A stretch of DNA of 64,000 nucleotides, taken from contig NC_135892.1 of NCBI RefSeq assembly GCF_964194155.1, forward strand, positions 66,588,001-66,652,000, in the 5' to 3' direction. This document shows positions 39,241 through 60,419 of the stretch, piece after piece. The stretch comes from Cetorhinus maximus (taxonomy: Eukaryota). A program made the position numbers and the translations under genes. A model generated the notes under the pieces. That model made no database searches. It was given only the letters and a program-made list of their open reading frames with translations, and had not been told where the DNA came from. Position 1 is the stretch's first letter; each line of letters begins with the position of its first letter.

Positions 39241-42095
39241 CTGTCACCTGGAGCAGTCCTGTAGACATCAAGTAGATTACTGTCTGGTGTGCTTTAAATA
39301 TGTGCCCAGAGCGAGGAAGCGTTGAGTTCATGGCGTGGTAGGCAGATCCAAGTCTGTCCACCAGTGATCCGGCATGTTTCCTATGAATGTATTATTAATG
39401 AGCTAGTTCACACTGGGAAGGGGAAAGATACAGGGCGAAAACCCATCATTGTGGCCGGCGGGTAAAACATAATTCTTCACACCCACTACCGCACTTAGTG
39501 CAAATCTGTGATGATTCCGCCCCATGTGTCTGCTACCCTTGTCCTTCTAGATGGTAGCAGCTGTGGGTTTGGAAGATGCTGTCTAAGGAGTCTTGGTGAG
39601 TTGCTGCAGTCCACCTTGTAGATGGTACACACTGCTGCCACTGTTCGTCGATGGTGGAGGGAGTGAGTGTTTCTGGAGGGGGTGCCAATCAATCGGACTG
39701 CTTTCTCCTGGATAGTGTCAAGCTCCTTGAGCGTTGTTGAAGGTGCATTTATCCAAGTAAGTGGAGAGCATTCCAGCACACTCCTGACCTGTTCTTGTAG
39801 ATGGTGAAAAGGTTTTGTGGAGTCAGGAAGTGAGTTACTTGCCACTGGATTCCTAGCCTCTGACCTGTTCTTGTAACAACATTAGTTATGTTGCTAGCCC
39901 AGTACAGTTTCTTGTCAATGGTAACCTCCAGAATGTTGATAGTGGGGGATTCAGCGAAGGTAATGCCATTGAATGTCGAGGCGATGGTTAGATTATCTCT
40001 TGTTGGAGATGGTCATTGCCTGGCACTTGTGTGATGCGAATCTTACTTCCCACTTGTCAGCCCAAGCCTGGATATTGTTCAAGTCTTGATGCATTCGGAC
40101 ATGGACTGCTTCAATATCAGACGAGTCATGAATGGTGCTGAACATTATGCAATCATCAGTGAACAGGCCCACTTCTGACCTTATGATGGAAGGAAGGTCA
40201 TTGATGAAGCAGCTGAAGATGGTTGGGCCTAGGACACTACCCTGTGGAACTCCTGCAGTGATGTCCTGGAACTGAGATGATTGACCTCCAACAACCACAA
40301 CCATCTTCCTTTGTACAAGGTATGACTCCAACCAGCGGAGAGTTTTCCCCCTGATTCCCATTGACTGCAGTTTTGCTAGGACTCCTTGATGCCATACTTG
40401 TTCAAATGCTGCCTTGATATCAAGGGCAGTCATGCTCACCTCACCTCTGGAGTTCAGCTCTTTTGTCCTTGTTTGAACCAAGGCTGTAATGATGTCAGGA
40501 GCTGAGTGACCTTGGCGGAACCTAAACTGAGCGTCAGTGAGCAGGTTATTGCTAAGCAAGTGCCACTTGACAGCAGTTCCATCACTTTACTGATGATCAA
40601 GAGTAGACTGATGGGATGGTAATTGGCCGGGTTGGATTTGTTCTGCTTTTTGTATGGAGGATATGCCTGGGCAATTTTCCACATTGCCGGGTAGATGCCA
40701 GTGTTGTAGCTGTATTGGAACAGCTTGGCTAGGGGCGTGGCAAGTTCTGGAGCACGAGTCTTCAGTGCAATTGCTGGAATGCTGTCAGGGCCCATAGACT
40801 TTGCAGTATCCAGTGCCTTCAGCCATTTCTTGAAATCACATGGATTTAATTGGCTGAAGACTGGCATTTGCGATGCTGGGGACCTCTAGAGGAGACCAAG
40901 ATCAATCATCGATTTGACACTTCTGGCTGAAGATTGTTGCATATGCTTCAGCCTTATCTTTTGCATTGATGTGCTGGGCTCCTCCATCATTGACGCTGAG
41001 GATATTTGTGGAGCCTCCTCCTCCAGTGGATTGTTTAATTGTCTCCCGCCATTCACGACTTGATGTGGTAGGACTGCAGAACATTAGATCTGATTCATTG
41101 GTTGTGGGATCGCTTAACTCTGTCTATTTCATGCTGGTTACACTGTTTGGCACACAAGTAGTCTTGAGTTGTAGCTTCATCAGGTTGACGCCTTATTTCT
41201 TGGTATGCCTGGTGCTGCTCCTGGCATGCCCTCTTGCACTCTTCATTGAACCAGGGTTGATCCCCTGGCTTGATGGTAATGGTAGAGTGAGGGATATGCC
41301 AGACCATGAGGTTATAGGTTGTGTTCAAGTACAATTCTGCTGCTGCTGATGGCCCACAGCGCCTCATGGTTGCCCAGTCTTGAGTTGCTAGATCTGTTTG
41401 AAATCTATTCCATTTAGCATAGTGGTAGTGCCACAGAACATGATGGAGGGTATCCTCAGTGTATAGATGGGATTTTGTCCTCACAAGGACTGTGCGATGG
41501 TCATTCCTACCGATACTGTCATGGACACATTCTACAGCAGGCAGTTTGGTGTGGATGAGATCATATACGTTTTTCCTTCTTGTTGGTTCCCTCACCACTT
41601 GCTGCAGATCTAGTCTAGCAGCAATGTTCTTCATGACTTGGCCAGCTCGGTCAGTAATGGTGCTACCAAGCCACTTTTGGTGATGGACATTGAAATCCCC
41701 CACTCAGAGTACATTCTGCACCCTTGCCACCCTCCGTGCTTCCTTCAGTTGGTGTTCAACATGGAGGAGCACTGATTCATCAGCTGAGGGGAGGGTTGGG
41801 GGATGGCGGCATGTTGCAATCAGCAGGAAGATCCCTTGCCAATGTTTGATCTGATGCTATGAGACTTCATGGGGTTTGGAGTCGATGTTGTGGACTCCCA
41901 GGGAAACTCCATCCCGAATGTATATCACGGCACCGCCACCTGTGCTGGCTCTATCCTGCCTGACATATATCCTGCTGCAGGTCTGAATTACAGAACAAAC
42001 AGCATCCTGGCACCATGCAACTCTGACAGGGGACAGTGGACGCAGATACAGGACGATCCTGGATAAGGGACGGTTGGTCACCCGGCCCTCAGTAA

Positions 42096-45000
42096 GGGCT
42101 ATATTTTCATCCATGCGTCAGGTGTGCAGAGTCAGGAGAATTCCCGGCCCTGGGAACCCAACTTCTAAAAATGTCTGACTGAACTTCCGATTTCCAGTCC
42201 GGGACGCGGGGGCCGCAGGCTATGTTAAGAGTCAGGCTGGGCAACCCCAGAATTAGCGAGGGATTGCAGGCAAGCCCGGCACAGGCTGGGCAACTTGAGT
42301 GCAAAAAAAAAAGCGGGCCCTCAGAAAGGCCCATTTGAGAGGTTGGTCATCCATGATGCAGTGCCTGTTTCTCAGAGGAGACACCATTAACTTGCCAGTT
42401 GAGTGGGAACTCTGTAAATATTGTACAGCTCTTAGCTGACCTTGGAGCAGATCATCATGGGGAAAAATGTCATGGTTGCCACCTATTCACAGTGTACCTC
42501 AGAGGGAAGTGGTGGTCTTGCAGCATTGTTGCTGGACTAGCGATCCAGACACTCAGGGTAATGCTCTGGGGAGCCGAAGTGAATAAGTTGAATTCAATAA
42601 AAATCTGGAATCTGGAATTGAAAGTCTAATGATGACTGGTTCAGTAATGTCCATTAGGAAAGGAAATCTTCTGTCCTTACCTGGTCTGGCTTACATGTGA
42701 CTGTGGACCCACAAAGTGGTTGACTCTTCAATGCCCTCTGAATGAGCTCTTGGATTCAGTGCCGGAAAAGGTTCAATGACCTGCTGCATTCCAGCAAGGT
42801 GAGTAGTTTGGCTCATCCACACAGAGTTCCAAGGGAAGGGTCATATCTGCATGCTGCAGCTAAGGTGTAAGGCCTGGCTCATACTTCTGCTTCAGCATTG
42901 AGGCTTGAATGTGTAAGCTGCTCATGTAGGTTACATACAGAACACATGTGAATGAGCACTGTGATGCACAGAGTGAAGAGAAATATCCCTGCATGCACCA
43001 TATATCAGGCTAACGTGAAATCATGTTGTCGTTGCAGACCAAAAGGGAGAAAAACACCATGGTGATGACCCGGACAGGGTGGGTCAGCCTGGCTGAGAAC
43101 AATTTGTTCAGTTAAGCAGATGGCCATGGAGATTTCTAGGGTCCCTGAGCAGTTGTCTGTTTGTGATGGTGAATCACTGGAAGCGGGTGATAAAGGCAGT
43201 GTTAAAACCATGTTGGAACATACTGGTAATGTTGGAGGTCATGATGTCAGTTCACTGAGTACAAGGCGATGTTGGCGTGAGTGGGAATACAAGGATGGGG
43301 TTGCATCATAAGGGCAGCACGATTAAGGCAATGGCATGCGTCAGCGAGTGCTTTCTCAATGAGGGAAGGTTATACCTAAATAACTCCTTTGTGTCTCACA
43401 CAGGCCCCATCTCTGCTTGCTCGCCACAGCCCCCTTCCCCATGCCCCATCCCACCACCCCCCCACCCCCCCCACCCCCCTAGGTCAGACCATCCCCTGGA
43501 CATCAAGACAGGAAAAGATGTCCAAGGAGGCAGTGTCGCATCAGACTAACCCGCACTCCGCCAACTCAGATACAGCACTTCAGAGGAATGTAGCGCGCAT
43601 GTAAAGTTGGTGGCACAGGGTGAGGGGCACCGCTCGAGTGCAGGAGGAGGTGTCGGAGTCACAGACATCTTTGTACTGTCCTCAGAGGAAAGTCACGATG
43701 GTGCTCCAGTAGGCAGGAATGTGGAGCCTCTGGAGTCATCTTTTGGGGCACAGTATTTGGACATCAACAGCAGGTGTGTGGACATTGGGCAGAGTTCCCT
43801 GAGGCAATGGGAGCTCCTGGACTGTGAATGGAGAAGTCCATCGCTGTCATGAGTTCCACATTGTCCCGGGGGCTCAGCCACATGAGCTCCGACAAAGAGA
43901 GATTGGCCGCTGTCATGGAGAAATAGAAGCAACAGCACTTGGAGTAGATGCGAGATCAGTGTCTCGGCCAGGAAAGGGTGCAAGCCTCCCTCAGTAGTTT
44001 GGATCAGTCTGCTCAGAATATGAACACTAACATCTATGGAATACATAAGGAGTGTGCACCCTTAACAGGATGGTCGCACTGTCCACACAGTGGTTGCTGG
44101 AATGGATGACTGCTGCACAGCAGCAGCAGCCAGCCCCATTAACCCATCTGAAGGCCTACCCAGGGCTGTGGAAGTCGCTGAGGAAAGTGAAGGTACTGGA
44201 AGATTCTCAGCACCCTCTTTTTCCTCCACCTCCAAGCTCCTCTGCCAGACACCACGTCTGCTACACATGTGCTAGAGACCACGGCTGCCCATGCAGAAAT
44301 GCAGAGGCTGCAGTCTGAAGGAGGTCTCCAACGATTTCCTGCATGACAAGGTCTTCCAAAACACTCCTCATTTCCATATAGACAGAGGAGTGAGCAGCCT
44401 GCCTCCACCTCCTCCAATGCAACACCTAGAGCACTAATGGGCCCACCATGGTTACACTTTTCACGTTGCAGGTATCACATTTGAGCACTTTTTGAATACA
44501 TTTACATATACTTGTATATGACTTAAAATGTGTTTGTACATTTTAGAACTCCCAAAGAATGGTACCATGATGAAGGACATTCTTACCTGTGATAATGAAG
44601 GTGGCATGCTGAGGTCCATCTCGAGGTGGAGGCATCAGGTGCAAAGGTGTGGCCATATGTGTGAGGCATTGGAGGGCTTCTTCCTTTCCTGGTCTAATAC
44701 ATAAGAATCCAGGGTTCAAAGGCTCAAGCACTGAAATGTTCCTTGCATCTTTCATTGTCCATCCAAATTTTACTTTAATGGAGGCTCAGTGACCAGGCTC
44801 CATGAGGAGATGCTGTGCAGCAAGCACATCTCAAGCATGTGTGCTGGGTGCAAAGCACTCATCTGCACAGCACCGTCATGCACTGGTCTAGGTGCAAGCA
44901 TCGCAGCACAACATGCCATTTATGCTTCAGAGAATATTGCTCATCTGCTGTCCCCACTACTTTGACAGCATTGGCATTCTAGGTGGCAGAGGATGTGCTT

Positions 45001-47025
45001 TGTAAGGGAACCCAAGGTTTATGATGTCACTCTCAGCATTGGGCATGGTTTGGTGCCTCATTTACAGGCACAGCTATTTATGTGAGGGGGCCAGGTTATG
45101 AAGGGCTTCTTACCATGTGTGTTTGTAATATGTTGAGGGCAATGGTTATGATGTTGAGGGTTGCAGCCACTTTAATGTAACTGAATCAAACGCATTGATG
45201 TTGATTCTCTCTCCTGTGGGGGACGGGCATTCCCCCGAGTAATTGTGGCGTCAATGTAAAAGGTTCTTTACTCAGAAGTTGCTCAGCAGGGACTGGCTGA
45301 TAGTAATTTTAAGGCAGGAGAACATTTTGAGAATCAATTTTGCACACGGACAAGTCTGGCAATGATCCCCTTCTGCACAGCTGGGCACATGGGCATACAC
45401 CTAGCTGTCCTGCCATTAGCCTCCTCAGCCTGCTCTGTTTGGGAAGAATGGGCAGGGGCTTCTTCTCCCTCCTCATCTTCCTCATCCTCCTCCAAGGTTG
45501 GAGGTCTGCCCATGGCATTGTTGTCATCGATTTCTAGGCCCCTTCACTCTGCAATGTTGTGCAGCATGCATTCTGGATACCCTTGCTGGGGCATACTGCA
45601 GGTCTCCAGCTGAGGAACCGAGGCACCTGAAAGCATATTTTTAAAATGCCAATGGCCTGGCTGGATTTTACCCCTTGTGACGACATGGCTGCTGTTGTAG
45701 TTGCACTCTGCCTCAGTTTGAGGGGTCCTGAAGGGGGTCATTAGCCAGGTTCTTAAGGGGTAGCCCTTGTCCCCCTAGGAGCCAACCACGGACCTATGAG
45801 GGTGGCTGAAATAGCCGAGGGTGTTGCGAACTGCTCAGTATGAAGGAGCCGTGGGAGCGCAGGGAAGCTTGCACACAGCTAAAGGAAGTTTTTGTTATGG
45901 TCACAAACCACCTGTATATTGAATGAGTGAAAGAACATTCGGTTGATGAAGGTGTCCAATTTATAAGTTGGAGCCTTTATGGCAACATGGGCGCAATTAA
46001 TAACACCCTGCACCTGAGGGCAGCCTGCTGACTGGCCAAAGGCTGTGGCTCTTTGCGTCTGAGATGCTAAATCTACAGGAAAATTAATGTGATTCTCCCA
46101 CGCAAGCAAACAAGGCACTAGTTACAGCCTTGATGTAGCTGTGTGCTGCTGACTGGGATATAGCAGACTGGTCTTCAGTTGATCCCTGGAAAGAGCCTCA
46201 GGCATAAAAATTGGTAGTGATGATTACCTTTACAGCCACTGGCAGGGCATGAGGGTCAATAGACTGTGCCTCAAGTTGTTGATGGACATGTGATATTTGT
46301 CCATCACAGTCTAGCCTCAGTCATCTTCGGCACTGGCTCTTCGTCATATTGAGGTATGATGTCCTGGGTCTGTACACCCTTCCCACAGGGTATCACCTGG
46401 TTGTTCTGCCTCTCCTCCTCCTCCTTCCTGGTGCGCGTGGTGCTGCCTCTTCCTCCTGACCTTCAGCCACCTCTCTGGCCTCTGACTGCTAATGTTGATT
46501 GGTTTCTATGTCGTCTATGTACGAGGATGCCATGTCCATCTTGTATCTTCCTTCGCATGAGGCACAATGCACCCTTCTCAAACACAACATCCTTCCTGGC
46601 ACCTGGGTGTATGAGTTAGTAGAGGCAAAAAAAACTGCCTGTGAGTCCAGCAGACCCACCCTCCTACACTTTGGATTGAGTTTTTGCCAATTCTGAGCCA
46701 GTTAAGACAAGCTTAAAGCAAGTTCTACAAGAGTACCTGCACCTCTCCAAAAGGGTACCCTGGATATGCAAAGAAATGAACAAAGTTCAGACCTGTTCCT
46801 ACCAGGTCTACCCTGCACCTGTGTGACCAAATTCCAGTGGAGGTAGCTGCTGATTAATATGAGCAGCTGCCTCCATGAAATGCGCAAACACAAACCCTGA
46901 CTCAGGTCTATTCCCACCCCCTGTAAAAATGGTAGATGCCATGTTCGGGGGGTAGGGGGAGGCGGACTTGCGATTTCCCAGCATGTCTGCCATTTTCACT
47001 AAGATGGGGAGGCCAAATTCATGCC
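42096..47025 (-). mobile_element. Decayed two-gene Harbinger (Myb + at about 42750-44430; transposase - at about 45240-46560)
   Basis: WIQCRKRFNDLLHSSK precedes GTGAGT at 42799. The minus strand gives PQVQGVINCAHVAIKAP..FHSFNIQVVCD and [17 protein letters not shown] flanks both putative ends, but the TIRs are degenerate. Confidence 0.8.
42500..42745 (+). mobile_element. SINE fragment inserted in the Harbinger element
   Basis: Contains aggaaatct..ccttacctggtctggcttacatgtgact..ggttgactctt..gccctctgaa, recalled as a common fish/shark SINE body. The family name is not certain. Confidence 0.5.
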
Positions 47026-47329
47026 TAACTTTTCAATATCTGCCTTTAATCGCACATCTGCACATGCCTGAAGTTACTATGGTATTTGCGCATAAATACC
47101 AACAAATGCTCTCAGCCTTGCTGTTATCTTGACAAAAATGTTGCGCAAAGGTCGCTAAATGCGCTCATTGGCAATTAGCAGCAGTGTCTTAATGCTTAAC
47201 TGACTTCAGGAAAAGTCCAGTTGCAATCAATTCCAATTCAAAAATGACTGATGTTAACCCTGAGCAAGTGTATGTTTATCACTGCAACTAGAGCTCAGAA
47301 TTTATTCATTTTATTTATAGAAAGATAAT

Positions 47330-48010
47330 AGGCAGGATTTTCGGGTTGTCGGACTGGCATGGTGGGCGGGGCCCGGGAGCCGCCTGGAAATGGTCCACCG
47401 CCCACGGTCAGCCCCCAACCATGATTTCACACTGGCTGGACAAGTAACAGCCAGCCAGTATGAAAGGCGTGCTGAAATGCTCAGTGCTGCTGGGGTGGGG
47501 GCGGCGGGGGGGGGGGCGAGTGCTAACGTCTGCACAGGCACGGGGGGTGCGCAATGAAAGCTCCCTGAAGGCAGGGAGCTGAAAAATTTAAAAATCAGAA
47601 ATAAAGATTATAAAAGTCTGAAAAAAAATGTCCCCGCATAGGATTCATTCGCATTATGTAGATAATAAAAATTATGTCAAAACATTTTTTTTTAAAATTA
47701 ATGTCGGAAACCTCATCCCGCCCGTGGATGAGGCTTCCTCAAAAACGCAAAGGCCGCCTGACCAATTCTCCCACCAACCAACCGTAACATTGGACAGGCA
47801 GAGAAAAATCTCCGTTAATTAATGAACTAATGGCCATAAAAGGCCTCTTAACTGCTGGCCGGCACACTGCCAACTCTCGTGCCCACCCGCCGACCGAAAT
47901 ATCGCAAAGCGCATGATGATGTCAGGACGCTCACCCAACATCACCGCACGCTATTTCACGCTCGAGCATGTCGGGCGCACGTGCTCGCGCGCCGAGTGGA
48001 AAATTCTGCC
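47330..48010. mobile_element. Harbinger MITE (GGGCAGAATTTT family)
   Basis: aggcaggatttt ... aaaattctgcc with AAT flanks. The body is colinear with 15848-16476. Confidence 0.9.
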
Positions 48011-49154
48011 AATGTTCTCAACAAATAGTCAACTATGAATAAAAAATATATGGAATTCATTTATAACTACTGAGGGTTTTACTTCTGTACTCATTCATCT
48101 TTATTACTTTTTAAATTTTTATTATTTAAGCACTCATAATAAAGTTGTAACAAAGCTTTAAATCAATCAGACAGAAGTTTATGCTATTCAATGATTCTGG
48201 GCTAATATGTATAACCCATTAATTCGTCAACATAGATCTTCAAAAAAGCAAGACCATGTTTTCCCAAAGGCTCTATAAAATTGAAAAATGAACATTATGT
48301 CATCATGCATCACGACTGTCTTCTCTTTTGCAAATGCTAATAGCAGAAGCAGGAACACATCATCATATTCCTTGATGATGCTCCAATAGTTCATACCAGC
48401 CACATGGATCTTGCTGATCCACTAAACCTCTTCTATTTACTGCATCTGCCCATACAGATCTCACTCATCCATATTTCATGCTGACTATTTTTCAAGTTTC
48501 CCATTTTCATCTTTCCCCACTGCTTTGGACATCCATTTTTGCACTTCGTCTTATCTCGCAGCAAGGTTCTCCCAAGGCTTTGCAGCGCAAACATTTATTT
48601 TCATTTCAAAATGTAAGATATTCCCAGGCCCAAAACCAATTATAACAAAATAGCTATGTATTTTTTGTAGTTTTGCATCAAAAAAGCCTAATGTTGGATA
48701 TTTTTTCCTACAAAAAAATAAGTGTACTATTATTTCACTTAACTTGAAAGAAGTTTTAAAGATTCCCAGCGTTCACAGTCTCTGTCAATTTAAAGATGGC
48801 CTTCAGTTTATCAGAAGGGAGATACTGCCCTCAAGGCTAAAAATGGCACATTTATTCATTTTCAAGTTCGCTGTTTATCTGCTGGGAGTCATTAGTCTTG
48901 ATGTGATTTATCGCTAACATTGTGTAATCCTATTAATTCCCTGATATAGATTGCTAAACAACCCATATCTCAAACTTATTTAGTTGGTTTTTGAACTTGC
49001 CCATGGCCATGGGAGGATCATAGGCAGGAATTTTAATATGAGCCAACACATGGAGTTGGGTGAAGTTACGAGTTAAATCGTTCAAATTTCCAACTGTGTT
49101 GGGAACACTTCAACTTGTCCAGTTCTGAGTTTAACAGAGGTGGAACAAAGTGAT

Positions 49155-49210
49155 GGTGGGGGTGTTGGGGGGTGGCAGGTGGGGGGGGGGGGGTGGGGGG
49201 GGGGGGTGGA
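49155..49210 (+). repeat. Poly-G tract (G-quadruplex potential)
   Basis: Multiple long G runs, within a probable old MITE starting near 49022. Confidence 0.7.
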
Positions 49211-50309
49211 TGGCGAGGATGGGGCAAGCAAACAGGTCTCAGGAGGCTCCCAAACTTAAATATTTTAATGAGGCTGACAATTCACAGCCTCTGATTTAAT
49301 CTGCTTGGAAGGTTTTATAGTGGGTTTCCCAAACTCAGAAAATCTAGAAGCTGGTGTGAGGCAAGGAAAGCTTTGGGGAGAAGGTAAGTGCCTCACAGCA
49401 CTACTTGTGGGTCTGGAGGAACCACGACCTCAAACACCACACCCGCATAAGAAACCATCATACAAAGGACCTCAGGATTCCAGCCCCCAGGGTGGAGGGT
49501 GGGGCAGGAATGGATATCCACCACTGCCCCAGGAATTGACTCCTGCCCTGGGCCGTGGATCGTACCTACCTGGTCCTGCACCCTGCTCTGACGGACTCCC
49601 AATCTGAATGGAAGCCAAGCCTTTCCATCAGGAGGGAACCAGTCAAGTACAAAAGATGCATGCTCCATATCATGCAGGGAAATTTCTGGATTTCCTGCCC
49701 AGAACACCTCCCCACAACCTACATAACCCTGTTAATATGCTGGCCATCCCCTAGCTCTCATTCTGCTTTGCTGATTAACAGGGACTTCAAATGGAAGTAA
49801 AATGTTTCTGTCTGGGTGTTTAGTTCAGGCAAAGGGCTATGAAATTACATAATTCATGTAAAAATGTAAAATAGATATCCAACATTTTCCTTAATCGCTG
49901 ACATTAATAATCAAACGTTACCTGCAGAGTTGGAGGACTATCTTATCTGGTGTCACAAATAAAGTGCCTGTCCCAAGATACAAAACCTTCACGGCAGTGG
50001 AATTTAAATTTACAAATCTTATTATTTACTTCAGGTGGGAGATAATGCTAAGGAGATTGTAAAGCTTTGAGGTGTGTTTCCGTGAACCTGATGTCAGACA
50101 ATGCAGGGTGTATATACAGTACATCCAAAGGAGTTGATATCCCCTATTGTGCCTGCCATAAGCTCCTGTTTATATGTCCCATCTTTCAATGCATATTAGT
50201 GGTACACTTATATGATCTCAAAATTGTACCTGTCTAGAGGTTACAGATGCAATTTTTTAAGTGTCTAATATCATTTATTTCTGAATTAGAAGGTAATTAA
50301 TTCACCCCT

Positions 50310-50790
50310 GTGTGTATAACTTGAGCACATTATCTAGACTGACAAGTTAGTGGAGTGGTGTACTTTTAAAAATGTCATCTTTCATGTGAGATACTAAATG
50401 AACACCTTATTCCTCAAATCTGTTCCTGTTCCACATGCTGTAACTTTGCCAGAGGAATGGTAGAACATTCATATGTGTAACTTTTGGTGGAGTAATGGCA
50501 GTGGAGTGGAAACAGCTCTGAGGAAATTTCTAGTCTTTGATTATCCATTCAAGTGCACTAATTAAAGAAGAACAGGGAGGTATCTTGCTCAACATTCCTG
50601 CATCAATCAATGCTGCCAAAAAGAACAGGTTAACTAGTCATTTATCTGCATGCTCGATGTAGTTTTGTCTGCAAATTGGCTGTTTTCTCCCACAAAACTG
50701 CAGTGGCACCATTCCAAAAGTATATAATTTTATTTCAGTGTTTTGAAGCATCTGGAGACATGTTAAGGCTCTATATAATTTCAATTTCTG
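50310..50790 (+). mobile_element. Highly decayed DeuSINE-like (SacSINE1-type) element
   Basis: Recalled Deu-domain motifs gtcatctttc..gagatactaaa, aagaagaacagggag and gcaaattggctg, ending in an L2-like tail (aaggctctatataa). Confidence 0.55.
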
Positions 50791-50836
50791 TTGTTTCTAT
50801 CAATAATATGAATGGCCCCAATTTTAACTTCGCCCT

Positions 50837-52125
50837 AGAATAAGAACAAAAATACCTGGAAAAACTCAGCAGGTCTGACAGCATCTGCGGAGAGGAATCC
50901 AGTTAACGTTTCGAGTCCAAATGACTTCACCAGAACTAACGAAAAATAGAAATGAGGTGAAATATAAACTGCTTTAAGCGGGGGTTGGGACAGGTAGAGC
51001 TGGATAGAGGGCCAGTGATAGGTGGAGATTGTCAAAAGATGTCATAGACAAAAGGACAAAGAGGTGTTGACGGTGGTGATATTAGCTAAGAAATGTGCTA
51101 ATGGTGACATTAAGGGTAGAAAGCAGGACGAGCAACAGACAGATAGCCCTAGTGGGGGTGGGGTGGGGGGGAATCAAAATAGGCTAAAAGGTAGAGATAA
51201 AACAATGGATGGAAATACATTTAAAAATAATGGAAATAGATGGGAAAAGAAAAATATATGTAAATTATTGGAAAAAGGGGGATCGGATAGTGGGTTGAGA
51301 TGGAGGAGAGAGTTCTTGATCTAAAGTTGTTAAACTCAATGTTAAGTCCAGAAGGTTGTAAAGTACTTAGTTGGAAGATGAGGTGCTGTTCCTCCAGTTT
51401 GCGTTGAGCTTCATTGGAACATTGCAGCAGGCCAAGGACGGACATGTGGGCATGAGAGCAGGGTGGTGTGTTGAAATGGCAAGTGACAGGGAGGTCTGCG
51501 TCATGCTTGCAGACAGACCGAAGGTGTTCCACAAAGCGGTCACCCAGTCTGCGTTTGGTCTCTCCAAAGTAGAGGAAACCGCAATGGGAGCAGCGAATGC
51601 ATTAAACTAAATTGAGGGAAGTGCAAGTGAAATGCTGCTTCACTTGAAAGGAGTGTTTGGGCCCTTGGACGGTGAGGATGGGGGAAGTAAAGGGACAGGT
51701 GTTGCAATTGCATGGGAAGGTGCCGTGGGAGGGGGTTGAGGTGTAGGGGGTGACGGAGGAGTGGACCAGGGTGTCCCGGGGGGAACAATCCCTATGAAAT
51801 GCCGCCAAGGGTGGTGAAGGGAAGTTGTGTTTGGTGGTGGCATCATGCTGGAGTTGGCGGAAATGGCGGAGGATGATCCTTTGAATGCCGGGGGCGGGTG
51901 GGGTGATAAGTGAGGACAAGGGGGACCCTATCACGGTTCTGGGAGGGAGAGGAAGGTGTGAGGGTGGATGCGCGGGAGATTGGCCAGGCATGGTTGAGGG
52001 CCCTGTCAACAACTGTGGGTGGAAAACCTCGGTTAAGGAAAAAGGAAGAGATATCAGAGGAACTGTTTTTGAAAGTGGCATCATCAGAACAGATGCAACG
52101 GAGGCAAAGGAACTGAGAGAATGGG
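50837..52125 (-). mobile_element. Penelope-like element, left arm (GIY-YIG region + 3' pLTR)
   Basis: Reverse complement of 52126-53417. Encodes EHLRSVCKHDADLPVTCHFN..EEQHLIFQLSTLQPSGLNIEF. Confidence 0.93.
50901..50937 (-). ncRNA. Minimal type I hammerhead ribozyme motif (mutated copy)
   Basis: The minus strand reads agtt-CTGGTGA-agtcatttggactc-GAAACGTT-aact. It has a core A>G change and a 2-nt deletion relative to the other arm. Confidence 0.7.
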
Positions 52126-53444
52126 CCTTTGCCTCCGTCGCATCTGTTCTGATGATGCCACTTTCAAAAACAGTTCCTCTGACATGTCTTCCTTCTTCCT
52201 TAACCAAGGTTTTCCACCCACGGTGGTTGACAGGGCCCTCAACCGTGTCCAGCCCATCTCGCGCGCATCCACCCTCACACCTTCCTCTCCTCCCCAGAAC
52301 CATGATAGGGTCCCCCTTGTCCTCACTTATCACCCCACCAGCCTCCGTATTCAAAGGATCATCCTCCGCCATTTCCGCCAACTCCAGCATGATGCCACCA
52401 CCAAACACATCTTCCGTTCACCACCCCTGGTGACGTTTCACAGGGATCGTTCCCTCCGGGACACCCTGGTCCACTCCTCCGTCACCCCCTACACCTCAAC
52501 ACCCTCCCACGGCACCTTCCCATGCAACCGCAGAATGTGCAACACCTGCCCCTTTACTTCCCCCCTCCTCACCGTCCAAGGACCCAAACACTCCTTTCAA
52601 GTGAAGCAGCATTTCACTTGCACTTCCCTCAATTTAGCCTACTGCATTCGCTGCTCCCAATGCAGTTTCCTCTACATTGGAGAGACCAAACGCAGACTGG
52701 GTGACCGCTTTGCGGAACACCTTCGGTCTGTCCGCAAGCATGATCCAGACCTCCTTGTCGCTTGCCATTTCAACACACCACCCTGCTCTCATGCCCACAT
52801 GCCCGTCCTTGGCCTGCTGCAATGTTCCAGTGAAGCTCAATGCAAACTGGAGGAACAGCACCTCATCTTCTGACTAGGCACTTTACAGCCTTCTGGACTG
52901 AATATTGAGTTCAACAACTTTAGATCATGAACTCTCTCCTCCATCCCCACCCACTTTCCAATCCCCCTTTTTACAATAATTGATATAGATTTTTCTTTTC
53001 CCATCTATTTCCATTATTTTTAAATGTATTTCCATCCATTGTTTTATCTCTACCTTTTAGCCTATTTTGATTCCCCCACCCCCCACCCCCACTAGGGCTA
53101 TCTGCACCTTGCTTGTCCTGTTTTCTACCCTTAATGTCCCCATTAGCATATTTCTTAGCTAATATCACCACTGTCAACACCTCTTTGTCCTTTTGTCTAT
53201 GACATCTTTTGGCTATCTCCGCCTATCACTGGCCCTCTATCCAGCTCTACCTGTCCCACCCCCCACCCCCCCTTAAACCAGCTTATATTTCACCTCTTTT
53301 CTATTTTTCCTTAGTTATGATGAAGAGTCATTTGGACTCGAAACGTTAACTGGATTCCTCTCCACAGTTGCTGTCAGACCTGCTGAGTTTTTCCAGGTAT
53401 TTTTGTTTTTGTTCTAGATTTCCAGCATCCGCAGTATTTTGCTG
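52126..53444 (+). mobile_element. Penelope-like element, right arm (RT thumb/linker, GIY-YIG endonuclease, 3' pLTR)
   Basis: ORF 52121-52873 reads LRRICSDD..RVPLVLTYHP..GTFPCNRRMCNTC..NLAYCIRCSQCSFLYIGETKRRLGDRFAEH. It is 5'-truncated and lacks the RT core. Confidence 0.95.
53313..53351 (+). ncRNA. Minimal type I hammerhead ribozyme motif (mutated copy)
   Basis: agtt-ATGATGA-a-gagtc-atttg-gactc-GAAACGTT-aact. Stem I is agtt/aact, stem II is gagtc/gactc, and the palindromic AACGTT forms stem III. The first core C is changed to A. Confidence 0.75.
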
Positions 53445-55026
53445 TTAACTTCCCCCTGCCTGGGTGGAGGCCGGGCTGGGTGTGGGGGGAGGTGGGGTAA
53501 TTAAAATGAGTGGGGGTCTAACTCACTACTTTCCATCTGACCAACCGATATTAAAATAGCAAGGGGCAAAGATGCCTTTCCCAAACCTGCCGCATTCCTC
53601 GTTATGCAGATTACTTTAAATGACATCATAATGACCTGTCCCACCATTTTATCTGGTGTGGGAAGCTGTAGTGGCTCCCCGGTCTTGTCAAATCTGCCAG
53701 AAGCTGGATCAAGGGCCTGAAGAGGCCCGGCAAAGAAAGTTTTGTAACTTCCTTTTCATTTCCTTGTGGGCAGGGGAGCAGGCATACTTCGCCCAACACC
53801 CTCTGTTCATTTTTGGAACTCCCTCTTCATCCACTTACCTGACTGTCGATGACCGGGTCTCCATGGAGCTGGACTCTTGCCACCCGAAGTCCCACTTGCA
53901 ACCACTAGCCAGGCAATTAAATCAGCTGGGCGTGGACAGGAGTCAGGGCCTGAACATGAAAATGATGCCCAGGAGGCCACCCCTTACGAGTTTGTTATTT
54001 GTGTAAGACCCTCGCATGGACGGAACTTGCCAGCCCCCTAGTAAAATCAGGGCATGCCTGTTAGGCCTTATGGTCAATTTAATCAGTCTATATTGGGGCC
54101 AATATTCTGTACATGTGTCCATCTGGTATATCACTTGTGTTAACAAAAAATTAACCACTCTAATATATGTAAGCATTTCAACCTTTACCAAAGTTTAATA
54201 TGACAGTCCCTTCAATAAAGTTCAAATTAAGCATAAAATTGCTAACTACAAAACCACTCCCAAATTACTGCTATTATATAGAATCCTGATCCAAGCAAAA
54301 CATTTACACAAAAATCCCATTCCAAGCTTAAAGTGTTTCCCTATTTAATGTACAGCAGCACACTTGTCTTTTACTGTCAAAAAGCCCTATACAGATGACA
54401 GCATGTTTAAGGAATCTAATCATGTTTGGATACAATAAAGTTAATTTGGCTTGAAGTAAATGAATGAATAGATGTCACACTGATAATGGTTTACAGACTG
54501 ACTATTTTCATCAAGAATTCATAGAAGCCCAGCAGTACATTTCTTGGCAAATCGGCTTTTGCTTATCAGAACCTAACTGTAATGAGTATTGGATAAAAGA
54601 GACTATGAGGCATTATGAAATCATCCAGCATAACTATAAAATATAACTTTTATTCTTATATGGGCAAGGTGATGACACATGAATGGCAAGTGCCAGGAAG
54701 TTCCTAGGAGCTGCTCTTATTCCGCTGCTGTAACCTCTAACAAAATTCCAAGGAAATTTCGAGCCAAAGCATTGAGTTAATTATGAAATAAAGCAGGGGC
54801 TGGCACTGAGCTGACTAGGAACAAGTTTACACAAGACAAGGGGTGTCTCATTCCCCTGACCTTTCTGCACAACATGAGGGCCATCATTACCTCTGAACAC
54901 AATGCTAAATGGAATGAAGGATCCACTCGGCCCTATTTAAAGAGGTCATTAGCTATTTAGAGATTAATTGCTGGATAATATCTCCTGACTGCAGATGAAA
55001 TTCTATGTGTTTTTGGAGTTCTCCTA

Positions 55027-56399
55027 GGGCAGGATTTTCAGCTTGGCATGCAGGCACATGCCCAACACGCACGAGTGTGGAATTGCACGCGATGACATCA
55101 GGTGATCATTCCAAAGTCATAGCGCAATTGCGCAATATTTCGGTTGCCTGGTGCGCGGCAGTGCGCCCGCCGACAATTAAGAGAGGCTGTTAAGCCCATT
55201 GAACAATTAATTAAAGTGAATTATTCCCTGCCTGTCCAACCTTACAGTTGGCGGGTGGGCGAACAGGCCAAGCGGCCTTTGCATTTTTTTGAAACCTCAT
55301 CCATGGGCGGTATAAGGTTTTGAACATTGATTAAAAAAAAATAAAAATTTTTGAACCTCATTTTTAACATGTCTCTGCTCATGTGACAGAGGGACATGTT
55401 TTCCTTGGGCAGAATTTTACCCTCAGCGGGGGTGGGCGGGGGCGGTCGGGAAGCCGACCGCTGCCCGCGATCAGCACCGCACCGCGATGTCACACTGGTG
55501 GGCCAATTAAGGCCAGCCCAGTGTGGAACGCTAGCAGCTGCGTTCAGCGCTGTCTGTGCGGGCGGGGGGAGGGGAGGGTGAGTGGGCCTAGGCCGAACTT
55601 CGCGGATGCGTGTGAGTGAGCGCTTCACTCTCCCTGAGGCACAGAGCTACCTCCGGGAGGTGAAGCGCTGTTTAAAAAAACTAATGAAGAAAATAAAAAT
55701 GTCATAAAACATGTCCCCTCATGTGACTCGGTCACATGAGCAGGGACATGTTTTTAATTGAAGTGTAAAATTTTTATTTGATTTTTATTTGCTTTAGGAA
55801 CCCTCACCCCACCCGTGGATGAGGTTTCCTAAAAAGTGCAAAGACTGCTCGACATTTTCGCCTGCCCGCCAACCGTAAGGTTGGACGGACAGTGTAAATT
55901 TGAATTTAATGACATTTTAATGGCTTTAATAGGCATTTTAACTGTCGGCGGGCGTGCTGCCAGCTTTGGTGCGCGCCCGCTGAACAAAATATCGCGAAAT
56001 TACACGATGACATCGGGATGCTCGCCTGACATCATCGCACGTCATTTTACATTCAGCCAGGTCGGGCGCGCGCCCATCTGCCGGGCTCAATATTCTGCCC
56101 CGTATTTTTGAAATCTTTATTTTTAATGTTAAAAATCTTCAGCTCCCTGAGGCAGCTCTGTGCCTTCAGGGAGCTTTCACTGAGCACACCTGCCGCACGT
56201 GCACATTTCAGCACTCGCGCTCCTCCCACCCCCACCCAGGCAGCGCTGAGGTTATCAGCGCACGTTTCACGCTGGCTGGCTGTTAATTGGCCAGCCAATG
56301 TGAAATCGCAGTCGGGACCCGACTGCAAGCGGCAGACCATTGTGCGGCCGCCTCAGGACCCACCCGCCGTGCCTTCCCAATGAGGAAACAATCCTCCCC
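55027..56399. mobile_element. Harbinger MITE (outer), TSD CTA
   Basis: gggcaggatttt ... aatcctcccc, with CTA at 55024-55026 and 56400-56402. It is in opposite orientation to 15848-16476. Confidence 0.85.
55407..56100. mobile_element. Harbinger MITE (inner), nested in a MITE of the same family
   Basis: gggcagaatttt ... aatattctgccc, with flanks CTT/CGT. Confidence 0.9.
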
Positions 56400-56539
56400 C
56401 TATACTTTGATACTCTACAGGGAAAGGTCTGGCTGGTATTGAAGTACCTTAATTGCAAATTTAAAATCTTGTGCTGAAAGAAGTTGCTTCCAGACCTGAG
56501 TGGCCTGATAAGGCTTCTTCCAGAAATTGCATGACTGAG

Positions 56540-56810
56540 AGAATGAGAGGCCACACAAAGTGGAACAAACTCCTAGAAGAGGGAGGAGGAGTATAAGGAG
56601 AAGAGCTCTCAGTAAGAGGTCATATCCACTGATGATCTTCAGAGAAGAATTATCTGACCTCAATTTCAGTGAGGAGCAATGCATAAGGTATCTTCAGTTC
56701 ACGAATGAGGCTGTGAGTGAAATTGGCCAACTGCTGCAGTGATAACATCAAAGTAGACCAAATACAACATTGCCTGAGCTTTCAAGGTGACTGTAGCTCT
56801 TAAGTTTCAT
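56540..56810 (+). pseudogene. Harbinger transposase N-terminal remnant
   Basis: RRRALSKRSYPLMIFREELSDLNFSEEQCIRYLQF aligns with RRRHYPAPRVYRR*SSYLNMTEVQCRRRLRL near 59370. Confidence 0.7.
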
Positions 56811-57049
56811 GTGTTTGACAGAACACACAGGAAGCATAGAACCCACAACAGAAATGATGGCAACTGACAGCAGAGTAAGCTGCCTGGGCTACGTACAGGA
56901 GCTGTTTTATGTCTGATAGTTCACCACCTGTTAGACACTATCCTTTTCTTTTATGTATGAGTTTTGTTTTTAAATATGACAATGGTGGGGACGTAAACAC
57001 AGGGACCAAAGTTCTGCAGGATTTTGCCAGTATTCCACTGCAACTCTGG

Positions 57050-57880
57050 CAGAAGACTGATGAAAACTTCAAGAAACCAATGGATATCTGTTTTGTACTT
57101 GGATTCCACATGTCCGAGTATTTCCCCTTTGCCTTTGTCTATCCCATATAAATGGCTCAATCAATACCACCGAATTCCCTTTATCTGTATGTTAGTTCAA
57201 TTGTTCAAAGTACAGCATGATATCACATTTGTGAGTTGTTTTAAAGAAGTCCATGCCATTTATCTTTCATTATTCCATGAATCTCTAAATGTTCATGAAC
57301 ATAGTTGCCTTGTTTGGCCTTCTCTACCTTTTTGCACAAATATACACCACTCAGTTCTTATCTCCTATAAAAATGCATTTAATGAAGTCAGCATTAATAA
57401 CTTTCAGATCAGTCATAACATGGGTCAAATGAAGTTCACAGACTGCCTTCACAGTATTCTATAACCAAATTCCCAGAAGAGTGACCTTTGCTATACCAGT
57501 GTGCATATTTCACATCCCAGCAATCAGCAATAATTGTGACATCTCTAAGTAATAATTTGCACTGGCCTAGAAACAGTTTTGTACATTTAACTTGTGATCA
57601 GGGTGTGCGCCAGTGCCAGCCTAATGGCTCCTTTGAGTGGTTGAACTGGAGGGTGAACTTGTCCAGTTTTTTTGAGTGCGTGTTGCTTCATGAGGCCCTT
57701 TGCCCGTCCTGCCCTTGGGACTGATCCTTTAGTTATAGCTCTATTTCTATGAGACCAGTCCATTTGGTACTCTGAGCAGGGTGAAGCCCACTGGCACTGC
57801 TTCTCTAAAGAGTTACTGCCTGTCATATTCAACTGTGATAGGCTCCTGTAACTGGGTGTTCAATGGTTCAGTCATGGTAA
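57050..57880 (-). mobile_element. Very old CR1-like RT remnant
   Basis: The minus strand reads YVHEHLEIHGIMKDKWHG, similar to the CR1 segment ending in SQHGF. The rest is heavily decayed. Confidence 0.45.
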
Positions 57881-59194
57881 TAAGGGGAAAACCTTGTGTT
57901 AAGCTTAAGTTTATACTGTTTTTGCATTTGCCTGCAGAGTGACATAAAGATGTCATTTGGTTCCCTGCCATTGAGTAAAGTTTCAGTGGACTACAGTGAC
58001 GTCAAAGATGCATGCTGCTCAATCTCTGAAAGCTACTGTTGATGGAATCAATTAATGCTGTGAAAACCTTCAGCTCCTCTATTCTGCAGACTGGTCCAGT
58101 GGGGTATCAACCCTTTGCCATGCTGCTGGCAAATATCAAGAAAGAACGAGAGAAAAAAGGACTGAAGAAGAAGGCAGGTTGCTGAAAGCAAAACATAGGC
58201 GATGCTATTCCTATAATTTACCAAAGTATATCTTGACTCAAATAATGAGTTTCAGCAGTGTACAAGTTTCAATACACACAGATAGTCGAAAGTGGAGCAG
58301 CAGAAAGAAATGTGGAATGTTACTTATAGAACATTGAAATCCTGAAGCTTGGGTCCTGTTTAAAATATGTAGAGTTGAATAAATGCTTCTTACATCTATT
58401 AGATCCCATCTAAATTAAAATAATTACTATTCTATTATGACAATGTGTTTGATGTGGAAAGTACAAAATCCAGAATCAGTTTTAAGTAATACTTTAGCCT
58501 CTATCCATTCTTTGCCATGGTACGTTATTGCGTGTGATTTTGTGATTACACTGGGGCTGGTTTTGACTTGATCCAATAGTGTAAGACAAGTGATAGTTAA
58601 TCAACAACTCAATTTACATCTCTCCACAGTGGAGTAGCTTTTGACTTCACTAGAAATAAAAAAATGGGGGAAATGTAACATGGGCTGCTGACTGACTATC
58701 GCATGGTTTATACGATCACATAGGGCAGAATTTTCTGGCTGACGTGCGGGTGGGGGAGCCCACACGTCAGCACTTAAAATGTCACGCAATAATCCCGACG
58801 TCAGCGCGCGGCATCGCGATATTTCGGTCAGCAAACGCACAGCAGTGGGACGCGCACCCGCCATTAATTAAAGGCCTCTTTAAGGCCCTTAGCTTGCCAA
58901 TTGTCGACGATTTTGAGGGGCCCATGCAAACTTCGGCTCGGCGAACGGGCCCAACGGGCAGGTGGATAGGAGATTTTTTATTAAAACTCATGCACTGGCG
59001 GGGTATTTGGTCTCGGAGGGGTTGCTCATGTTTTTCATGAAGTCTTTAATGCAGAAAGTGCTTTAAACTTGTCTGTGTGATGGTTAGCAGTTCACATCAA
59101 TTTCCAAGAGCTTTCTATGTACTTTGAAACCAACTTGCAGACAGTAATCTTTATCGGGCCTGCAGCTTTCCGGAGGCCTCCATTTAGCCTGGAT

Positions 59195-60419
59195 ATGGGT
59201 TCTGACATCTCCACTGGAGGCAGCTCCACTGAGGAGGAAGGGAGGGATAGAATAAGGAGGAGGCCAGGAGTGGACAATCAGCCTCCAGGGGAGCCATCTT
59301 TCGGAGGCCAGGCGCAGGCACAAGGGGCGCAGGGCCAAGAGGTTGTCCAAGGTGGAAGGGGCTGCAGAAGACGCCACTATCCTGCTCCCAGGGTATACAG
59401 GCGGTGAAGCAGCTACCTCAATATGACTGAGGTGCAGTGCCGAAGGAGGCTCCGACTGTCAAGGGGGGCAGTGAACTATGTCTGTCCGATGATTGGCCCT
59501 GAGATCTCCCCTAACTGTGTGGGCAGACACCCCACGCCAGCGGCTCTGAAGTTCACAGTTGCCCTCAACTTCTATTCCTCTGGCTCCTTCCAGGGCTCAG
59601 TGGGTGATCTTTGCGGTGTCTCCCAATCAGCTGTACACACTTGAGTCAAGCAGGTCACAGACGCTCTGTTCAGACGGACATTGACCTTCATCCACTTCCG
59701 CTGTGACCAGGCAAGCCAGACACAGCGAGCCAGAGGCTTCGCAGCCATTGCTGGCTTCCCCCGTGTCCAGGGTGCAATAGACTGTACACATGTGGCCATC
59801 AAGGCGCCAGCAGGTGAGCCCAGTGCCCTCGTCAACAGGAAGGGCTTCCACTCCATGAACGTGCAGATAGTGTGTGATCACGGGATGCAGATTCTGCAAG
59901 TTTGTGCAAGGTACCCAGGCAGCTCCCACGACGCCTACATCCTCAGACACTCCCAGGTGCCGGGGCTCTTCAGTGCTCCAGCTCGGCTGGATGGATGGCT
60001 GCTGGGTGACAAGAGCTAACCCCTCAGAAGGTGGCTCATGACGCCTCTCCGCCATCCAAGAACAGAAGCTGAGCAGCGCTACAATAGGAGCCACGCCTCC
60101 ACAAGGGCTGTAGTGGGGAGAGCCATCAGTCTTCTCAAGATGCGGTTCCGTTGCCTGGACCGCTCAGGGGGCGCACTCCAGTACCCCCCAGATCGCGTTT
60201 CTCTGATAGTGGTAGCATGCTGCATCCTGCACAATCTTGCACTGGAAAGGGGGGATGCAGTTGACGATGAAGACCTTGACGCAGTGGATGAGGCTGATGA
60301 TGAATCCAGCAGAGGATGAGGAAGCACAGGGCAACGATGAGGGGCAGCACGCCGACCCACTACTACACCAAGGAGGCAGGGACACCTGGGACAATTTAAT
60401 CCAACAAACCTTCAGCTCG
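59195..60419 (+). pseudogene. Harbinger DDE transposase (HARBI1-like family), inactivated
   Basis: One frame reads VALNFYSSGSFQ, FPRVQGAIDCTHVAI, NRKGFHSMNVQIVCD, YPGSSHD, WLLGDKS*PL, LLKMRFRCL and ACCILHN. Stops occur at 59405, 59642 and 60017, with a frameshift near 60310. Confidence 0.95.

Follow-up and report, generated by a model that had tools for sequence, protein, structure and literature searches.

The window, a 64,000-nt stretch of the Cetorhinus maximus genome (3.99 Gb), contains an inverted pair of Penelope-like copies, with a degenerate hammerhead motif near the outer end of each arm (Table 1). The locus itself is ordinary, and inverted, one-tailed units were common among the fetched loci of the family. 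The two arms met head to head with zero filler and were 91.7% identical (52126-53417 versus 52110-50835). A premature stop (52871-52873) closed the frame of the ORF remnant roughly 19 codons ahead of the point where it terminates in the long copies. The flanking sequences looked like a target-site duplication, and 2 of 3000 random window pairs matched each other equally well. Thirteen derived sites in 1292 were common to both arms, and 7 of these occurred at ≤5% in the subfamily. The sharing of rare variants and the likely target-site duplication pointed to a single insertion event. A further 33 derived sites were private to the right arm and 72 to the left, and both hammerhead lesions were private. 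The ordinary non-CpG decay of the two arms amounted to 2.4% and 4.2%. The pair is thus likely to be one inverted, 5'-truncated insertion that decayed independently in each arm, and gene conversion between the arms may be an alternative source of the shared sites. ADAR editing of the left arm was rejected, with A>G and T>C accounting for 3 and 6 of its 69 substitutions. A transcript across the locus would fold the arms into a hairpin of about 1.3 kb, burying both motifs.

Two further features were noted elsewhere in the window. Repeats of another dispersed family, with GGCAGAATTTT-like ends and unrelated to the Penelope arms, occurred in direct and inverted orientation at 47331-48010, 55028-56361 and 58724-58844. 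An open frame on the minus strand (41095-41703) gave a weak endonuclease match below the cut-off (PF14529, E=5e-5) and is probably a LINE remnant.

Table 1. Coordinates of the inverted Penelope-like insertion and its hammerhead motifs in the window
Feature	Positions	Strand	Remark
Likely target-site duplication, left copy	50824..50836	+	12/13 identical
Left arm: inverted 5'-truncated copy	50835..52125	-	5' end 15 nt longer; no tail
Left minimal type I hammerhead	50901..50937	-	A6>G at 50930; 2 nt deleted
Right arm: 5'-truncated Penelope-like copy	52126..53417	+	ORF C-terminus, 3' UTR, pLTR with ribozyme
ORF remnant: CX4CX2C linker and GIY-YIG endonuclease	52126..52873	+	PF01541 E=0.0036, below cut-off
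Initiator-like site overlapping stem I, putative transcription start	53311..53317	+	family 5' ends pile up there
Right minimal type I hammerhead	53313..53351	+	C3>A at 53317; predicted scissile bond 53347/53348 (GUU)
One-sided 'tail' extension, right arm only	53418..53443	+	end approximate
Likely target-site duplication, right copy	53445..53457	+

Full units of the family ran pLTR-ORF-pLTR over about 3.3 kb, and the ribozyme lay a short distance 5' of the frame for reverse transcriptase (RT) and GIY-YIG. The longest open frame (926 aa, L081) had no Pfam match at E≤0.01. RVT_1 and GIY-YIG matches were obtained in L233 and L245. RVT_1 exceeded its cut-off in one of four proteins (L233, 30.1 bits against 29.6), and the GIY-YIG match of L233 had E=3e-4. 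The CX4CX2C linker was present in the window ORF and in L081-L083. In the long copies, the putative start codon was an in-frame ATG about 140 nt 3' of the cut site, and the 3' ends of the family were bimodal, near +95 and +130 from C3. With a single ORF of RT and C-terminal GIY-YIG, inverted and tandem pLTRs and a one-sided tail, the family is by its features an EN+ Penelope-like element (PLE). The linker motif CX2-5CxxC alone, the criterion given in PMC8557442, would make it Neptune-type; Nematis elements share a linker motif. A non-LTR retrozyme, defined as non-coding tandem repeats with one hammerhead per unit (bioRxiv 10.64898/2026.07.22.740005), was rejected because the window's pair is inverted and retains ORF remnants.

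Two decayed hammerhead motifs

In the right copy, stem I (53313-53316) was followed by the core (53317-53323), an inserted A and stem II (53325-53329/53335-53339), and then by GAAA (53340-53343) and the ACGU palindrome (53343-53346), with the predicted cut after U17 (53347). Helix I pairs AGUU with AACU, and stem III is formed by the palindromic ACGU without a loop 3. The canonical core CUGANGA...GAAA..UH is complete in the subfamily, and each window copy had one lesion-bearing core and an intact GUU/AACU substrate strand. The two nucleotides lost from the left copy lay at the base of stem II, uncoupling stem II from G12. One inserted base after A9 and the G10.1-C11.1 pair were found in the right copy and in all nine subfamily groups, and were missing from the left copy. 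A minimal-hammerhead descriptor gave 0 perfect matches over the window and exactly these two once one core mismatch was permitted, with 0 matches in 40 of 40 dinucleotide shuffles of the window. An Rfam scan of 44000-60000 returned no hammerhead family at E≤10; the Rfam matches in this interval were hairpin look-alikes at the arm junction.

An earlier note on this DNA had proposed a pair of minimal hammerheads, one in each arm, and both motifs were found with the lesions it described. The palindromic stem III was also confirmed, as ACGU with zero loop in the window copies. The note had placed the minimal type I hammerhead in the Penelope pLTR, and the ribozyme was indeed present in both pLTRs of the long units L081, L083, L084 and L085. 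The window motifs are decayed members of the PLE minimal type I hammerheads, a kind described in PMC4209133. Given the lesions, both present copies are probably inactive, as the note had supposed. The Anolis element reportedly no longer cuts once C3 is changed (PMC11167929), which makes it likely that the right copy is dead. Of the two lesions in the left copy, the deletion weighs more, because position 6 varies across the lineage.

The two copies had previously been merged into an ancestral ribozyme said to be reconstructible from this locus alone. The merged core proved to be the subfamily form, and the lesions do help in guessing it, but the guess is unneeded with 610 exact intact copies elsewhere. 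The loop ATTTG and the G at 53353 of the merged sequence came from this insertion and do not represent the subfamily. Counted by eye among the first 100 listed intact copies, the loop was ATTTG in 17 and ATTCG in 83, and none of 81 subfamily copies carried G at that position. The loop ATTCA also occurs; variants such as ATTTG and ATTCA beside the majority ATTCG are what CpG decay predicts.

The damage had also been called complementary. If the two copies complemented each other or formed a working pair at the locus, one would expect lesions at different positions and an intact substrate strand in each, and both are present. However, both lesions fall in the CUGANGA/stem II half, the enzyme half, so that each core of a mixed dimer would still be defective. 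Moreover, the copies face opposite ways, and one transcript would contain one sense and one antisense copy within a 92% complementary hairpin. Functional complementation was ruled out by this geometry, and the arms show only the ordinary decay given above. We give a working pair practically no credence, and the 'complementary' damage is independent decay.

Core position 6 and conservation of the fold

Exact 34-mer matches, which favour young copies and are not total copy numbers, amounted to 5,038 for A6 (2839 with the GAGTC stem and 2199 with GGGYC), 14,521 for U6 (5593 with GAGTC and 8928 with GGGTC/ATGAG) and 6,883 for C6. Reversed-pattern controls gave 0 matches. U6 with GGGTC/ATTYG was also present, outside these exact counts. 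Post-insertion decay was rejected as the origin of U6, since the decay control (C6 or G6) on the same GAGTC background gave 404 exact matches against 5593. A core-independent sample was obtained with a 33-mer anchor downstream of the cut site (54,251 matches, again favouring young copies), using 99 of the first 100 listed matches, which cover the first 4.4 Mb of one contig; one of the 100 was unrecovered. Of these copies, 83 cover C3, and 82 of the 83 are ungapped. Position 6 in the 82 copies was U in 39, C in 32, A in 9 and G in 2, while at the eight other non-CpG core positions 7 of 656 cells were changed. The canonical CUGAUGA is absent from most copies of the lineage, and A6 is not invariant in the U6 and C6 subfamilies. 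The younger branches altered a normally fixed core base twice, yet more than 20,000 copies were made. The earlier note had held that a family consensus lacking CUGAUGA would speak against its reading; such a consensus is true of the lineage (A6 in 9 of 82) and false of the window's subfamily.

The order of the subfamilies was examined with 665 non-CpG ORF columns, which lie outside the ribozyme, in 73 of 288 anchored copies and 2 outgroups. Copies with too little ORF overlap were left out, as were three or four loci repeating a place. The root was set by two distant Penelope pieces, only 64-66% identical. A tree on the ORF end and UTR had placed the root inside the family, and outgroup-rooted trees were used instead. 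The tree was a ladder running from the A6 groups through the window's A6/ATTCG group, U6 and U6/ATGAG to C6, the youngest. UFBoot support was 99 for the clade of U6/ATGAG and C6 and 99 for the C6 clade, and weak (53) at the A6/U6 boundary; the A6 copy L100 fell among U6 copies. The identical order was obtained from a shorter alignment. Median terminal branches were 0.024 in the window's subfamily (n=22), 0.017 in U6 (n=10) and 0.003 in C6 GGGCC (n=15). Pooled pairwise divergence (0.118 in the oldest A6, 0.061 in the window's subfamily, 0.074 in U6/ATGAG and 0.030 in C6) agreed with the ladder at its extremes, with the heterogeneous U6/ATGAG group out of order. Position 6 is therefore likely to have passed from A6 to U6 to C6 in successive subfamilies. 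Frames of 645 and 636 aa occurred among the C6 copies, in keeping with recent activity. At four loci (L019, L007, L100 and L032) inverted or adjacent arms differed in loop or position-6 letters, which suggests that copies inserted next to older ones or that the template was switched from one subfamily to another.

In spite of the changes at position 6, C3, U4, G5, G8, A9, G10.1-C11.1, G12-A15.1 and ACGU were unchanged across the nine groups, and position 17 was U or C, so that H was kept. Stem II was 100% paired in 22 rows. It shifted from A-U to G-U, and from U-A to C-G within C6, where the pair read U-A in 17, C-G in 83 and mixed in 0 of the first 100 listed copies (counted by eye). One C6 copy (L061 1419-1453) had U-G at this pair and is a possible intermediate. 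Between U6 and C6, none of the 14 positions constrained by the hammerhead changed, compared with 8 of the 16 free positions (Fisher p=0.003, or p=0.015 counting A6), the split having been defined post hoc with the data already seen. Four-fold-site divergence between these groups was only 10.6%, a level at which chance alone could leave 14 positions unchanged about once in five. Covariation comprised one two-sided and one one-sided helix II change, with a weak whole-structure score that was equalled by 19 of 500 shuffles. In nearest-neighbour folding of 12 natural copies, intact ones among them, the active dimer was always less stable than the dimer minimum, by 7.7-13.5 kcal/mol. Neither in monomer nor in homodimer folding of these copies was the active double hammerhead the minimum, and intact and damaged copies were indistinguishable.

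The stretch downstream of the ribozyme changed at 8 of 63 positions. The corresponding window segment 53352-53400, with its exact 33-mer matches, was conserved across subfamilies at least as strongly as the ribozyme, and is a candidate protein-binding or reverse-transcription start signal. Since this stretch is conserved too, a promoter or protein-binding constraint could account for the conservation. Overall, the evidence favours continued selection on the fold, short of proving catalysis.

Copy 5' ends and the role of the ribozyme

The 5' ends were taken from the core-independent sample, replacing a count on loci chosen for an intact core. Among the 99 anchored copies, 49 extended upstream, 19 started within -7..+1 of C3 and 1 started at the cut site. 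The pile-up at stem I among the 50 copies that truncate nearby was far above expectation (binomial p=2e-10), whereas starts at the cut site were not enriched (1 versus 2.6 expected). In copy L332 (G000:C1:4143292-4143674), which is connected to an inverted copy, the 5' end coincides exactly with the predicted cut site; this copy could derive from a cleaved template. The pile-up coincided with an initiator-like sequence over stem I. The subfamily form fits the initiator consensus, YYANWYY, from which the window copy departs at the last base. The D. virilis Penelope is reported to have an internal promoter that includes an initiator (PMC2377424). A stall of reverse transcription would be expected on entering the hairpin, not past it; the pile-up is more readily explained by an RNA 5' end, and we infer that the element RNA starts at stem I. 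Because copy 5' ends lie at stem I and not at the cut site, the templates seem to be uncut. This agrees with the Anolis element, in which ribozyme mutants had no effect on insertion in vitro (PMC11167929). With 5' ends at the ribozyme start and 1 of 99 at the cut site, the earlier statement that this family processed its RNA by self-cleavage is doubtful.

Spliceosomal introns occur close to the 5' end in some EN+ PLEs, and an intron beside the ribozyme, as in D. virilis, was also considered. A polypyrimidine tract with AG (53298-53314) lies immediately 5' of the ribozyme, and a donor-like CAG/GT (53396-53402) lies about 50 nt past the cut site. Full units have a second acceptor-like site about 57 nt beyond the donor-like site (L083 3640-3810). 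Contigs from runs presumed to be RNA, which carry no end or strand information, cover the family and were compared with a full unit and the young 5' junction. No GT-AG joint was found among the joints listed, 535 further joints being unlisted. None of the joints listed supported the intron, and the AG doubles as the initiator-like site.

We think it probable that the window holds a decayed pair from one inverted PLE insertion, whose family ribozyme is a slow, selected switch while uncut RNA serves as template. The RNA would begin at stem I, making the ribozyme the first 39 nt or so of the element RNA. Cleavage would be slow, after GUU or GUC, only in a double hammerhead joined through ACGU, and probably assisted by the element's own protein. 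Reverse transcription would proceed mainly from uncut RNA. A cut in the 5' pLTR would strip the capped leader, so that weaker cores would be cheap or even favoured. Selection would thus have preserved the fold and the catalytic guanosines, with a weakened position 6 tolerated or favoured, and the ribozyme would act as a slow switch rather than as a step that RNA processing requires. The element can probably spread without fast self-cutting. More tentatively, and at less than an even chance, a single master lineage may have moved from A6 to U to C while keeping the other catalytic bases, repairing stem II and starting its RNA at the ribozyme's first base. The ribozyme would then be a selection-tuned switch, slow and gated by protein or metal, that removes the capped first 35 nt or so, and A6U would be a natural working variant with more than 14,000 copies. 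In published measurements, low Mg2+ supports little cleavage by A6C and Mn2+ supports more (PMC7151607, PMC3088659), and a full scan found single CUGA mutants low in activity (PMC9901934).

The same measurements could be taken to mean that the ribozyme has been catalytically dead since A6>U, its hairpin persisting only as a promoter, protein-binding or reverse-transcription signal. A6C lowers kobs more than 10,000-fold at 0.3 mM Mg2+ in a robust hammerhead (table in PMC7151607), and minimal hammerheads are described as slow already (PMC4209133). In predicted folds U6 can pair with the cleavage strand, Naiads are reported to spread without canonical hammerheads (PMC8557442), and the 10.6% divergence since U6 represents little neutral drift. 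However, G8, G12, the C3-G8 pair, G10.1-C11.1 and ACGU remained fixed, no base other than U or C appeared at position 17, and a compensatory stem II change occurred inside the youngest C6 group. We regard complete loss of catalysis as unlikely. Efficient dimer self-cleavage as normal RNA processing, with U6 and C6 fully working when bound by protein, would explain why the other core bases and both stems were kept in nine subfamily groups, and L332 does begin at the cut site. The Anolis ribozyme requires protein, and protein-assisted cutting has been demonstrated for that element (PMC11167929); the natural A6C still cuts with Mn2+ (PMC7151607). Against efficient processing stand the enrichment of 5' ends at stem I rather than at the cut site and, for the Anolis element, the ineffectiveness of ribozyme mutations on insertion, together with the lack of RNA ends at the cut site in the work reported there (PMC11167929). 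Efficient processing seems to us quite improbable.

Relation to known systems

The minimal hammerheads of metazoan PLEs reported by Cervera and De la Pena in 2014 (PMC4209133), which include those of fish Neptune, Poseidon and Xena elements, share with the present family the type I layout, a 4-bp helix I, the inserted base between 9 and 10.1, G10.1-C11.1, a palindromic 15.2-16.2 without loop 3, and thousands of solo and opposite-strand copies. The present family differs in its 5-bp helix II, and the core variant described there is U3-A8, whereas here position 6 changed from A to U to C. The insertions match those of EN+ PLEs (Craig et al. 2021, PMC8557442) in their head-to-head truncated copies, C-terminal GIY-YIG, CX2-5CxxC linker and tail on one end only, which is 30-40 bp in that report; nothing essential differs. 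The tail is described in both PMC8557442 and PMC11167929. Poseidon PAc of Anolis carolinensis (Frangieh et al. 2024, PMC11167929) has its ribozyme at the pLTR-ORF junction and uncut RNA as the apparent template, as we propose here, and two internal 3' ends define its tail, resembling the bimodal 3' ends of the window's family. However, the PAc ORF starts inside stem II, whereas here the ATG lies well past the cut site, and the evidence for PAc is biochemical while ours is genomic.

The role of the hammerhead in Penelope elements is stated to be unclear in PMC8557442, and the only direct test of it is the in vitro work of PMC11167929. In the A6, U6 and C6 series each stage is represented by insertions in the thousands, and this is in vivo evidence that the canonical core is dispensable for retrotransposition. 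The three natural RNAs also form a ready series for testing what Penelope hammerheads do. Descriptor searches that fix CUGANGA would miss most copies of this lineage.

The closest known counterpart of the C6 form is the natural A6C hammerhead of phage Bcep176 (PMC3088659, PMC7151607), which has the same C at core position 6. That ribozyme is a single one from a phage, and its cleavage has been measured as slow and favoured by Mn2+, whereas C6 here was reached via U6, occurs in thousands of retroelement copies, and is known from sequence alone. In the literature searched we found neither the A6-U6-C6 series nor a measured natural A6U; figures, supplement file 1 of PMC4209133, the supplements of the bioRxiv paper and Lunse et al. 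2017 could contain such variants. Minimal PLE hammerheads and their opposite-strand pairs are thus known, and what appears to be new is the amplified series of A6, U6 and C6 forms.
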